Source: Naegleria gruberi
Lineage: Eukaryota
Length of the DNA: 3,648 bases
NCBI GenBank assembly: GCA_000004985.1
Contig: GG739216.1
Strand: one strand, 5' to 3'
The notes beneath the pieces were generated by a model. That model did not search any database. It was not told the DNA's origin and was given only the letters and a program-made list of their open reading frames with translations. Numbering within the stretch: the first letter of the stretch is position 1; the number at the start of each line of letters is the position of its first letter. Both the position numbers and the translations under genes were made by a program. Below are positions 522 to 3,648 of the stretch, piece after piece.

Positions 522-844
522 TTAATAATTAAAATTATTTCCTCTTCTACATTTTTCACTTCCTTTTTGAATAAAATCTTGTAAAATATCATCGAATGGA
601 TAATTTAAATCAATTAAATTAAAAGTATTTAAAATAATATTACCAATTGGAGTATTTGAAATTGATAATTTAACAATATGATTATTATTTCTACTAATTA
701 GTAAATTAATTTCAGTTTTAAATTCTCTTTCAAATAATTGTAATGTATTAATTGTCCATTCTTCACAATGTATTCCATTTATATTTTTAAATCCATTAAA
801 TTTAATTGAATAAATTTCATTTTTAATTTCTTTTAATTTTAATT
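522..844 (-). CDS. 3'-terminal coding exon of an unidentified gene; upstream exons lie in or beyond the N gap. It translates ...EIYSIKFNGFKNINGIHCEEWTINTLQLFEREFKTEINLLISRNNNHIVKLSISNTPIGNIILNTFNLIDLNYPFDDILQDFIQKGSEKCRRGNNFNY*, with the stop at 522-524.
   Basis: The minus frame is open for 114 codons from just after the in-frame TGA at plus 867-869 to the stop at 522-524. It contains no ATG, TTG or CTG, which is why the ORF track misses it. Codon usage is canonical Dictyostelium (tta, att, caa, gaa, aga, ggt, cca). Candidate 3' splice acceptors are ccattAG ending at 845 and aaaAG ending at 830. No homology is recognised. Confidence 0.5.
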
Positions 845-879
845 CTAATGGAATTTGTAATAAATGTCATTGACTTGAT

Positions 880-2044
880 NNNNNNNNNNNNNNNNNNNNN
901 NNNNNNNNNNNNNNNNNNNNNNNNNNNNNNNNNNNNNNNNNNNNNNNNNNNNNNNNNNNNNNNNNNNNNNNNNNNNNNNNNNNNNNNNNNNNNNNNNNNN
1001 NNNNNNNNNNNNNNNNNNNNNNNNNNNNNNNNNNNNNNNNNNNNNNNNNNNNNNNNNNNNNNNNNNNNNNNNNNNNNNNNNNNNNNNNNNNNNNNNNNNN
1101 NNNNNNNNNNNNNNNNNNNNNNNNNNNNNNNNNNNNNNNNNNNNNNNNNNNNNNNNNNNNNNNNNNNNNNNNNNNNNNNNNNNNNNNNNNNNNNNNNNNN
1201 NNNNNNNNNNNNNNNNNNNNNNNNNNNNNNNNNNNNNNNNNNNNNNNNNNNNNNNNNNNNNNNNNNNNNNNNNNNNNNNNNNNNNNNNNNNNNNNNNNNN
1301 NNNNNNNNNNNNNNNNNNNNNNNNNNNNNNNNNNNNNNNNNNNNNNNNNNNNNNNNNNNNNNNNNNNNNNNNNNNNNNNNNNNNNNNNNNNNNNNNNNNN
1401 NNNNNNNNNNNNNNNNNNNNNNNNNNNNNNNNNNNNNNNNNNNNNNNNNNNNNNNNNNNNNNNNNNNNNNNNNNNNNNNNNNNNNNNNNNNNNNNNNNNN
1501 NNNNNNNNNNNNNNNNNNNNNNNNNNNNNNNNNNNNNNNNNNNNNNNNNNNNNNNNNNNNNNNNNNNNNNNNNNNNNNNNNNNNNNNNNNNNNNNNNNNN
1601 NNNNNNNNNNNNNNNNNNNNNNNNNNNNNNNNNNNNNNNNNNNNNNNNNNNNNNNNNNNNNNNNNNNNNNNNNNNNNNNNNNNNNNNNNNNNNNNNNNNN
1701 NNNNNNNNNNNNNNNNNNNNNNNNNNNNNNNNNNNNNNNNNNNNNNNNNNNNNNNNNNNNNNNNNNNNNNNNNNNNNNNNNNNNNNNNNNNNNNNNNNNN
1801 NNNNNNNNNNNNNNNNNNNNNNNNNNNNNNNNNNNNNNNNNNNNNNNNNNNNNNNNNNNNNNNNNNNNNNNNNNNNNNNNNNNNNNNNNNNNNNNNNNNN
1901 NNNNNNNNNNNNNNNNNNNNNNNNNNNNNNNNNNNNNNNNNNNNNNNNNNNNNNNNNNNNNNNNNNNNNNNNNNNNNNNNNNNNNNNNNNNNNNNNNNNN
2001 NNNNNNNNNNNNNNNNNNNNNNNNNNNNNNNNNNNNNNNNNNNN
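880..2044. other. Assembly or scaffold gap: 1165 consecutive N.
   Basis: Read directly from the sequence. Every ORF spanning it is an artefact, and the X-filled ORFs in the supplied track fall in this class. Confidence 1.
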
Positions 2045-2518
2045 CAACTGAATTCCATCATTTCCAAATAAATTACCAAATTCATGAACATGAAATGGTA
2101 ATTTTTTATTTGAATATACTAATGTATTTAATCCTATAATACTACCATTTATATTTATATTTAAATTATTATTTAAATTTAAATTTATATTATTATTATT
2201 ATTTACATTGTTATTATTATTTGAATTTAAATTATTATTTAAATATTTAATAAATATAGTACCATGAAGAGATGGCATATGAATAGTACCACGCATTCTA
2301 CATATTAATTGTGATGATTTATCTTCTTGTTGATTATATAATGGTTTTATTAAATTATTATAATTATCAATATTTGATGATGTAATTGGTGAATTTAATG
2401 ATATTACTATATTATTACATAATAATAATAATAATAATAATACAATAATAAAAGATGATTGACTATTAATCATCATCCGATGATCAAATAAATGATCAGT
2501 TAAAAACTTATTGATCAT
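2045..2518 (-). CDS. Cu/Zn superoxide dismutase, N-terminal part (158 codons from M at 2516-2518, or 144 from MM at 2471-2476), with a predicted signal peptide. The 3' half of the gene is lost in the gap.
   Basis: The translation (QLICRMRGTIHMPSLHGTIFIKYL ... INGSIIGLNTLVYSNKKLPFHVHEFGNLFGNDGIQL) aligns with human SOD1. It lines up with [20 protein letters not shown]...[22 protein letters not shown], including the copper-ligand HVH motif at 2084-2092. A signal-peptide-like MMINSQSSFIIVLLLLLLLCNNIVISLNS precedes it. The track ORF 845..2629 starts at a TTG (2627-2629) that the ORF finder rendered as M. The first in-frame ATGs are at 2516-2518, 2474-2476 and 2471-2473. Confidence 0.75.
2147..2239 (-). 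repeat. Asn-rich low-complexity insertion inside the SOD CDS (NNNLNSNNNNNVNNNNNINLNLNNNLNININ). It sits between the GxIxF strand and the GSIxGL strand of the SOD fold.
   Basis: (AAT)n-type codon runs on the minus strand appear as att/tta runs on plus. The frame is maintained, and conserved SOD motifs flank it on both sides. Confidence 0.8.
2420..2440 (-). repeat. (TTA)7 trinucleotide microsatellite, (TAA)7 on plus, encoding the Leu7 core of the SOD signal peptide.
   Basis: Read directly from the sequence. The minus-strand codons are gta tta tta tta tta tta tta tta tgt, giving V L7 C. Confidence 0.9.
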
Positions 2519-2810: not shown

Positions 2811-3648
2811 TTAATGTTTAAAATATTTTTCACATTGAACACCAATTCCAGCAACTTGATTTGACATGAAATATTGAAAACCTTCTCTAGTTAAATCTTG
2901 TTTCAATTCTTCTTCTTCTTCTTTTTGATTATTATTATCAATAATATTATTAATATCATTTAATAAAATAAAACCACATCCACCACCACCTGCACCTGTT
3001 AATTTAGCATGTAAATTATATTTAGATGCAATTTTACAAATTAAATCTAATTTAGGATGACCAGTTCCAATATCATTTAATAATGAATGATTTTTATCAA
3101 TTAATTCTTCCATTTTTAATCTTAATTCATTTGAAAATAAATGTGATGAATTAATTTTTAATTGATTTAAATATTCATCTGAAATATTTTGAATATCATT
3201 TAAACATTTTTCATAAAATTCAAAATTATTTTCTCTACGTTCTCTAACACCTTGAACAATTAATTTTGTATTTCTTTCAACACGTGTATTAACAATTAAA
3301 ATACGCATATTTGGTAATATTTGTGGTGATAAAAATTCTTGAATTTTACCTTGTGAAAAACTAATTACACCTCCAAATGTAGAAACTGAATTATCAATAC
3401 CAGATGGTGTACCATGAATTAATGATTCAACAAAATATGACCATTCATTAATATATTTTAATACATTTTCATTTGTTTCATTCTTATTTAAATTGTTATC
3501 ATTTAAATTATTATTTAAATTATTATTAATATCATTGGTATTAGCACTATTACTATCATTTAAATTATTATTATTAATATCATCAGTATTATTAATAGAT
3601 TGATGATTAAATTGAATAGAATGATAATTAATTCTATTAAATAAAATT
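2811..3648 (-). CDS. mvk: Mevalonate kinase (GHMP kinase family), C-terminal ~278 codons plus the stop at 2811-2813. The CDS continues upstream past the track's ATG at 3306-3308 to the window edge, so the 5' end is outside the window.
   Basis: The minus frame is open from 3648 to 2811. The translation reads ...[79 protein letters not shown]...[48 protein letters not shown]...[23 protein letters not shown]. This is collinear with human MVK (MIHGNPSGVDNAVSTWGG...[24 protein letters not shown]...[48 protein letters not shown]). The GHMP motif [11 protein letters not shown] lies at plus 2976-3008. Confidence 0.9.
   Translation of the reverse strand, partial: [278 protein letters not shown]
3471..3599 (-). 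repeat. Asn/Asp-rich low-complexity insertion in mevalonate kinase ([46 protein letters not shown]), just N-terminal of the conserved ...KYINEW...[10 protein letters not shown] block.
   Basis: It is in frame, free of stops, and followed by conserved mevalonate kinase sequence. Dictyostelid proteins typically carry poly-Asn tracts of this kind. Confidence 0.75.

Follow-up and report, generated by a model that had tools for sequence, protein, structure and literature searches.

A gap-interrupted Naegleria gruberi gene predicted to encode a multidomain secretory protein with a Cu-only-type superoxide dismutase domain

The locus and its interrupted gene

The window analysed here is a complete 3648 bp scaffold of Naegleria gruberi (contig GG739216.1), and not of a dictyostelid, with 19.4% G+C, in which a single run of N (880-2044) takes up about a third of the scaffold. 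Its minus strand carries a gene related to superoxide dismutase (SOD), which lies across this gap, and, upstream of it, part of a mevalonate kinase (MVK) gene (Table 1). On the evidence set out below, this SOD-like gene is likely to be the N. gruberi orthologue of a heterolobosean three-domain secretory protein, the first domain of which is a SOD of the Cu-only type. No description of this Naegleria protein was found in the literature, and its orthologues are deposited as hypothetical proteins. On this scaffold only the MVK fragment is annotated and neither half of the SOD-like gene has a model, which can now be drawn across the gap.

The minus-strand frame is free of stop codons from 2629 to the edge of the gap at 2045, that is, over 195 codons, and its first ATG is at 2518. 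From the composition, a stop would be expected by chance at about one codon in ten at approximately 19% G+C, and an open frame of this length is very unlikely to have arisen by chance. The two flanks of the gap match a single N. fowleri protein in the same order, with BLASTP E-values of 9e-24 for the N-terminal part and 6e-41 for the C-terminal part, and the N-terminal part also matches a protein of Willaertia magna (E 1e-18). In a four-species alignment, the orthologues of N. fowleri (667 residues), N. lovaniensis and W. magna, with lengths of about 556-667 residues, match both halves of the window. The preliminary description of this DNA had taken the gene to be a simple SOD truncated by the gap. 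Because the N. fowleri protein matches both sides of the gap and a TAA then closes the frame, the gene is instead interrupted and not cut short, with its 3' end visible on the same strand at 866..522, and the orthologues carry two further domains beyond that of a simple SOD.

The dimensions of the gene can also be compared with those of its orthologue. The span from 2518 to 522 measures 1997 nucleotides, versus 2004 for the N. fowleri gene, and the N. fowleri residues found between the two matched blocks (151-531 in P0121 numbering), about 381 in number, correspond to 1143 nucleotides versus the 1165 N of the gap. By orthology, the gap would contain the rest of domain 1, with the equivalents of H63, H120 and R143, the remnant of the Zn loop and a short electrostatic loop (ESL), followed by the linker, the degenerate second SOD-like domain and the C-terminal domain up to its middle. 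Residues are named after human SOD1, onto which they were mapped with MAFFT, and the numbering of the ligands follows PMC13017621.

Table 1. Features of the 3648 bp window, listed in the direction of the SOD-like gene, with the neighbouring gene last.
Feature	Position	Strand	Remarks
SOD-like gene, putative full extent	522..2518	-	ATG 2518..2516, TAA 524..522; 1165-N gap inside; about 660 codons expected
Hydrophobic leader motif FIIVLLLLLLLC	2452..2417	-	Found where the preliminary description placed it
Hydrophobic leader FIIVLLLLLLLCNNIVISL	2396..2452	-	Putative signal peptide or type II signal anchor; Kyte-Doolittle
SOD-like domain 1, N-terminal half (β1 to start of loop IV)	2045..2311	-	hhalign 90.5%; BLASTP to N. 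fowleri and W. magna
QLICRMRGT (β1)	2311..2285	-	Conserved β1 Cys in ICRMRGT
LHGTIFIKYL	2269..2240	-	β-strand motif
Asn-rich low-complexity tract, β2-β3 loop	2147..2239	-	31 codons
GSIIGL	2146..2129	-	β-strand motif
LPFHVHEFGN	2101..2072	-	FHVH copper motif
H-V-H codons of FHVHEFGN	2084..2092	-	SOD1 copper ligands H46 and H48 by column mapping to human SOD1
Assembly gap	880..2044	.	1165 N; by orthology would hide about 380-390 codons
In-frame TGA	867..869	-	11 nucleotides from the gap edge; Leu (QLHL) in all three orthologues
Last 114 codons of the SOD-like gene	525..866	-	BLASTP E 6e-41, 55% identity to N. fowleri residues 536-647; TAA 524..522 next
MVK, C-terminal part, upstream neighbour	2811..3647	-	Runs off the window; GHMP_kinases_C E 3e-7; synteny anchor

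The visible N-terminal part

The visible N-terminal part of the protein starts with a hydrophobic leader that reaches Kyte-Doolittle maxima of 3.76 over a 12-residue window and 2.86 over a 19-residue window. An equivalent segment is found at the N-terminus of all four orthologues, and in the N. fowleri protein it is the only segment of this kind. These properties fit a signal peptide or a type II anchor, and agree with the earlier proposal of a protein directed to the secretory pathway.

The four SOD motifs and the Asn-rich tract are found on the minus-strand frame at the coordinates previously given for them, and aligning the sequence to SOD1 and to SOD-like repeats with MAFFT and hhalign bears out the assignment of the motifs. 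When the fragment was compared with a profile of 93 SOD-like repeats, hhalign gave a probability of 90.5% and an E-value of 1.4e-6 over the region from β1 to the FHVH motif, and hmmsearch with the same profile gave 18.9 bits, versus a maximum of 10.1 among 500 shuffles. Judged by these comparisons, the resemblance of the fragment to SOD can be taken as real and more than chance, and the earlier assignment of this part to the SOD fold, with the FHVH copper histidines in place, holds.

Searches of general libraries with the fragment were less informative. A phmmer search of the PDB returned no SOD among its matches, the same search after deletion of the Asn-rich tract returned only a schistosome SOD at E=2.9, and a word-indexed search of 5.8 billion proteins gave no match. 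These searches failed because only β1 to β4 are present and because the 31-residue insertion splits the domain. Of the catalytic domain, the window holds just the half that is least diagnostic.

The Asn-rich tract and the β2-β3 loop

The Asn-rich tract is encoded by imperfect tandem repeats with periods of 6, 18 and 24 nucleotides, all of them multiples of three. Alignments to SOD1 and to the SOD repeats place the tract in the loop that joins β strands 2 and 3, as had been suggested from the sequence of the window. In N. fowleri and N. lovaniensis, the aligned loop has 28-30 residues that are rich in Gln and Ser and unrelated in sequence, and in Willaertia it has about 10 residues. The position of the long loop is therefore conserved within Naegleria (28-31 residues), with a content that is free and a filling that is specific to each species. 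A loop with a conserved position and free content, long in the Naegleria species and short in Willaertia, is probably one that the protein tolerates at its surface, and it would have been filled by replication slippage.

The possibility that the tract is an intron was ruled out, since the frame remains open through it and the repeats keep to periods divisible by three, and since, from our own reading of the sequence, the sole downstream AG would delete the ING residues that are conserved in all four species. These same residues are deleted by the intron annotated in the N. lovaniensis orthologue (L004 7573-9566). This orthologue needs two frame changes, one of which falls in the β2-β3 loop, and is annotated as two genes (P0124 and P0122). 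The frame changes are probably assembly indels rather than the mark of a pseudogene.

The metal site of domain 1

The orthologues contain the whole of domain 1, and with them the assignment to the SOD family can be made from the complete domain. With Pfam Sod_Cu (PF00080), for which the gathering cut-off is 28.9 bits, the proteins of W. magna and N. lovaniensis score above it (31.7 and 29.8 bits) and that of N. fowleri just under it (27.5 bits). A profile of domain 1 searched against the PDB retrieved only Cu/Zn SODs, SOD-like proteins and CCS, the best match being 7b4o (E 6.5e-8) and CCS being marginal (6fol, E 0.98). The match of domain 1 to the profile of 93 SOD repeats extends over the full length, with an hhalign probability of 99.5% and an E-value of 4e-23. 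Both the orthology and the membership in the SOD family are near certain.

The copper ligands H46 and H48 are visible in the window. H63, H120 and the catalytic R143 are present in all three orthologues and fall in the N run of the window. The four copper histidines and R143 of domain 1 do not vary among the three species, the proteins of which share 53-74% overall identity. The zinc site has a different fate: in the three orthologues, other residues take the place of H71 and H80, there is no conservation at D83, and the ESL (loop VII, from H120 to R143) has 8 residues, versus 22 in SOD1 and 5 in SOD5. Cu-only SODs are characterized by a SOD barrel that has a Cu site and lacks one for Zn, together with a shortened ESL (PMC13017621). 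Because the four copper histidines and the arginine are kept, the Zn ligands are gone and the ESL has 8 residues, the site of domain 1 would be of the Cu-only type and not of the Cu/Zn type, a reading that for the N. gruberi copy rests on the orthologues.

The preliminary description had considered the gene to encode a Cu/Zn enzyme, and a canonical bimetallic extracellular Cu/Zn SOD, with its Zn loop and ESL merely hidden in the gap, would indeed account for the canonical FHVHEFG and β1 to β3 motifs of the visible half and for the fact that the PDB matches of the orthologue profile are Cu/Zn SODs. It is made highly improbable by the loss of the Zn ligands and the shortening of the ESL in three of three orthologues, by the nearest non-orthologous relatives, which are Zn-less repeats with a short ESL, and by the size of the gene, which encodes about 660 residues including two extra domains.

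The Cu-only-type domain 1 also has an invariant pair of cysteines, one in β1 (ICRMRG, seen in the window) and the other in β8 (GQCVI), one position past the column of C146. This pair may form a β1-β8 disulfide.

Domain 2 and the C-terminal domain

Domain 1 is followed in the N. fowleri protein by a linker of about 70 residues rich in Ser and Thr, and by a second region (residues ~300-440) that aligns with the SOD-repeat profile from end to end, with an hhalign probability of 92.6% and an E-value of 4.6e-7. In this region H46 and H120 are replaced by Ser and R143 by Leu, and because these residues are lost, domain 2 is a degenerate domain with the SOD fold. A direct hhalign comparison of domain 1 with domain 2 was insignificant, and the kinship between the two appears only through the deeper repeat profile.

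The C-terminal domain is formed by the last ~227 residues, and its second half is the part seen in the window on the near side of the TAA. It contains the motifs HCEEW, YPFDD and KC, which are invariant across the orthologues in the form HCExW, YPxDD and KC, and the full domain has four conserved cysteines. An exhaustive HMMER scan of 1.84 billion representatives found this domain restricted to Naegleria and Willaertia, and it has no Pfam match and no sequence match in the PDB. A third degenerate SOD domain was considered and ruled out, given that hhalign finds the C-terminal domain unrelated to the SOD repeats and to domains 1 and 2.

The protein ends with ...KCRRGNNFNY*, without a hydrophobic tail. 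The earlier expectation that the N run would contain a C-terminal anchor region is not borne out, since a C-terminus without such a tail means that no glycosylphosphatidylinositol (GPI) or transmembrane anchor is hidden in the gap.

A Foldseek search of the PDB with an AlphaFold2 model of the C-terminal part, which has a predicted local distance difference test score (pLDDT) of 38, gave top matches that are all of the LolA, LppX, LprG or ependymin type, all of them below threshold (E>=3e-3, template modelling score ~0.2). A half-open antiparallel β-barrel with a hydrophobic cavity, as in LolA, LppX and ependymin, is suggested by this model as a lead only.

Comparison with known systems

The fungal and oomycete Cu-only SODs, represented by SOD5 (PDB 4N3T), resemble the Naegleria protein in having the SOD motifs, the four copper histidines, the arginine, no Zn site and a short ESL (8 residues in the orthologues versus 5 in SOD5), and also in the N-terminal secretion signal, which in the Naegleria protein is putative. 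In the Candida albicans SOD5 sequence of the alignment, the numbering of H75, H77, H93, E110, D113 and H153 agrees with PMC13017621. Unlike SOD5, the Naegleria protein lacks a GPI signal, has about 660 residues in three domains versus a single domain of about 25 kDa, and belongs to the Heterolobosea. In place of C57-C146 it has the β1 cysteine and the cysteine one past the C146 column, and no clear E110/D113 pair is seen. The likeness does not extend to a specific kinship in sequence, given that 4N3T is not among the PDB matches of the domain-1 profile at E<=1.

The best non-orthologous relatives (P0125-P0136) have E-values from 1e-19 to 1e-5. These proteins come from Ancyromonas sigmoides, the euglenid Ploeotia vitrea and metagenomes, and contain 3-12 tandem Sod_Cu units and a C-terminal transmembrane segment, some of them also with a WW domain. 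They have no Zn triad, mostly a Glu at the position of H80, and a median ESL of 5-8.5 residues. According to a 2026 review, open-site Cu-only SODs are confined to fungi and oomycetes and SOD-repeat proteins to animals and Capsaspora (PMC13017621), and the CSRP-like architecture of these relatives, found outside Opisthokonta, is not listed there. CSRP itself is described as having 4-12 tandem Cu-only SOD-like domains joined by linkers of 5-9 residues, with N-terminal repeats that lack Cu sites (PMC13017621).

The Naegleria protein shares with CSRP and the CSRP-like proteins a short ESL, the absence of the Zn triad, the β1 cysteine and the xQCVIG motif of β8. In all of them, a single polypeptide, secreted or in the membrane, contains both SOD-like domains that are Cu-competent and others that are degenerate. 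The Naegleria protein differs from CSRP in having only two SOD-like domains, with a long linker between them and the Cu-competent one at the N-terminus. It further differs from both groups in that it has no Glu at the position of H80, no CxxC in the loop and no C-terminal transmembrane segment or GPI anchor, and in that it has an extra, non-SOD domain at the C-terminus. By domain number, linker and domain order, and with a third domain that is unrelated to SOD, it falls outside the definition of CSRP.

Canonical Zn-containing two-domain SODs, including that of a dictyostelid, are found only at E 1e-4 to 1e-5. A comparison with dictyostelid paralogues had been proposed as a way to see if the position of the Asn-rich insertion is conserved. 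The best dictyostelid relative, Tieghemostelium lacteum KYQ89785.1 (P0141), resembles the Naegleria protein in its signal peptide, which in the latter is putative, and in its two SOD-like domains, β1 cysteine and the sequence GDGMSVGGH after FHxH. Unlike the Naegleria protein, it has the full Zn triad, a Sod_Cu score of 100.8 bits, a C-terminal transmembrane segment and no long β2-β3 insertion, and at E 1.1e-4 it is a distant relative and not an orthologue.

Domain 2 is analogous to domain II of CCS, in which a SOD fold without the catalytic ligands is fused to other domains (PMC13017621). Unlike CCS, the Naegleria protein shows no ATX1-like domain or CxC tail, and domain II of CCS keeps its Zn site and is cytosolic. 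When the N. fowleri protein was used as the query of a word-indexed search, it matched nothing but itself, because low-complexity words swamped the candidates.

Proposed function and weight of the evidence

The following working model is proposed. The N-terminal signal peptide or anchor would direct the protein into the secretory pathway, and its location would be outside the cell, or in the lumen of the secretory pathway or of phagosomes. Domain 1 would bind one Cu through the four histidines and could carry out superoxide dismutation at an open site, with the arginine guiding the anion. Domain 2, with the SOD fold and no metal ligands, is probably a structural partner. A role in binding to a ligand or a surface, or in anchoring, is possible for the C-terminal domain, which is β-rich, contains cysteines and is specific to this lineage.

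It is also conceivable, if unlikely, that the protein has the SOD fold and no catalytic activity, with a copper-binding, chaperone-like or structural role at the surface and with its function residing in the C-terminal domain. Non-catalytic SOD-like domains have precedents in CCS and CSRP (PMC13017621), the metal site of domain 2 is already gone, the Pfam scores of the orthologues are at the gathering threshold, and domain 1 itself has neither the canonical disulfide nor a clear E110/D113 pair. The invariance of the four histidines and R143 in three species points the other way, to a retained Cu site and to anion guidance.

Several observations weigh against a functional Cu-only-type domain in a heterolobosean secretory protein. 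H63, the Zn loop, H120, the ESL and R143 all fall in the N run and are read from orthologues with 42-46% identity. The C57-C146 disulfide of canonical SODs is missing, with Gly at the C57 column in the window and Gln at the C146 column in the orthologues. The E110/D113 region reads IQD in N. fowleri and N. lovaniensis and IEP in Willaertia, and its assignment depends on the alignment, with the Asp or Glu off by one to three positions; the Asp of IQD is placed on D83 by HMMER, on the Glu position by hhalign and elsewhere by MAFFT. The AlphaFold2 models are poor, with a pLDDT of 39 for the full-length N. fowleri protein (6 sequences) and of 38 for the C-terminal part (4 sequences). There is a TGA in the frame at 867-869, and the copy of the gene in the window may be defective. 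No expression or activity data were found in the literature. Finally, the Pfam scan of the fragment found neither Sod_Cu nor any other family at E<=1, and a missing Sod_Cu match had been named beforehand as an outcome that would speak against a SOD. Taken literally, this outcome was obtained with the fragment, and it is explained by the truncation of the domain and the 31-residue insertion; with the complete domain, two of the three orthologues pass the gathering threshold.

A more specific proposal, which can only be put forward tentatively, is that this protein is an active extracellular Cu-only SOD of the Heterolobosea, with an open, Zn-less site and a β1-β8 disulfide, fused to a degenerate SOD-like domain and to a lineage-specific domain that possibly binds ligands in the manner of LolA or ependymin. 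A Zn-less SOD domain with short loops in Naegleria and Willaertia would widen the distribution given in PMC13017621. If the proposal is true, then together with the repeat proteins of Ancyromonas and Ploeotia it would imply that opisthokonts and oomycetes did not invent the Cu-only SOD designs, and that these are either ancient in eukaryotes or have evolved repeatedly. In pathogenic fungi, Cu-only SODs have the role of handling the oxidative burst of the host. The orthologue of N. fowleri, which is a pathogen, would likewise be a candidate secreted protein acting against the host oxidative burst.

The in-frame stop codon and the neighbouring genes

The in-frame TGA close to the gap is one substitution away from TTA and stands at the end of a contig. 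It is probably a sequencing error, with a nonsense allele or a mis-joined edge as alternatives.

The order of MVK followed by the SOD-like gene, on one strand, is common to N. fowleri and N. lovaniensis, and in N. fowleri the second gene is the one for the 667-residue product with a weak Sod_Cu match. The synteny is not kept in W. magna, where the orthologue (KAL9642829.1) is on another contig. The MVK of the window is 100% identical to N. gruberi P0001 and 68% identical to the N. fowleri enzyme.

The GHMP C-terminal domain is intact in the MVK of the window. In the MVK of a 530-kb N. gruberi scaffold (P0002), the tail at the end is frameshifted (..SHLFSIKIKNGRIN) and the Asn-rich tract is different. 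Because the MVK of the window differs from P0002 in its tail and in its Asn-rich tract, the window looks like a redundant scaffold or an alternative haplotype, and the MVK model of the 530-kb scaffold looks truncated.

With this in mind, the SOD-like gene could be thought of as part of a defective or redundant haplotig, in which the locus of the 530-kb scaffold would be represented by a pseudogene allele or by an assembly artefact. The TGA at a position where the orthologues have Leu would be in line with this, as would the small size of a scaffold of which a third is N, the Asn-rich tract of its MVK, which is unlike that of P0002, and the nominal length of the gap, which leaves 1166 nucleotides between the flanking codons and breaks the reading frame. 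Each of these points has a counterpart, given that TGA and TTA differ by one nucleotide and the codon is only 11 nucleotides from a contig end, where errors concentrate, that gap lengths are estimates, that both flanks are otherwise open and conserved, and that the frameshifted MVK is the copy of the large scaffold and not that of the window. A defective haplotig is therefore an improbable explanation.

The MVK of the window also carries an Asn-rich insertion encoded by tandem repeats (NNNLNNNLNDNNLNKNETNEN, 3480-3594 on the minus strand), which is absent from the enzymes of N. fowleri, N. lovaniensis and Willaertia. Since MVK has such an insertion as well, the expansion of Asn tracts appears to be general to this A+T-rich region of N. 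gruberi.

On the plus strand, an open reading frame at 3-149 runs off the left end of the window (..KKLKPPPSTTTSSCDLNEHT*) and overlaps a second one of 87 residues at 136-399, which has a hydrophobic N-terminus. The plus-strand open reading frames within 3-399 have no counterpart at the loci of N. fowleri or N. lovaniensis, where the SOD-like gene is followed by that of methionyl-tRNA synthetase.

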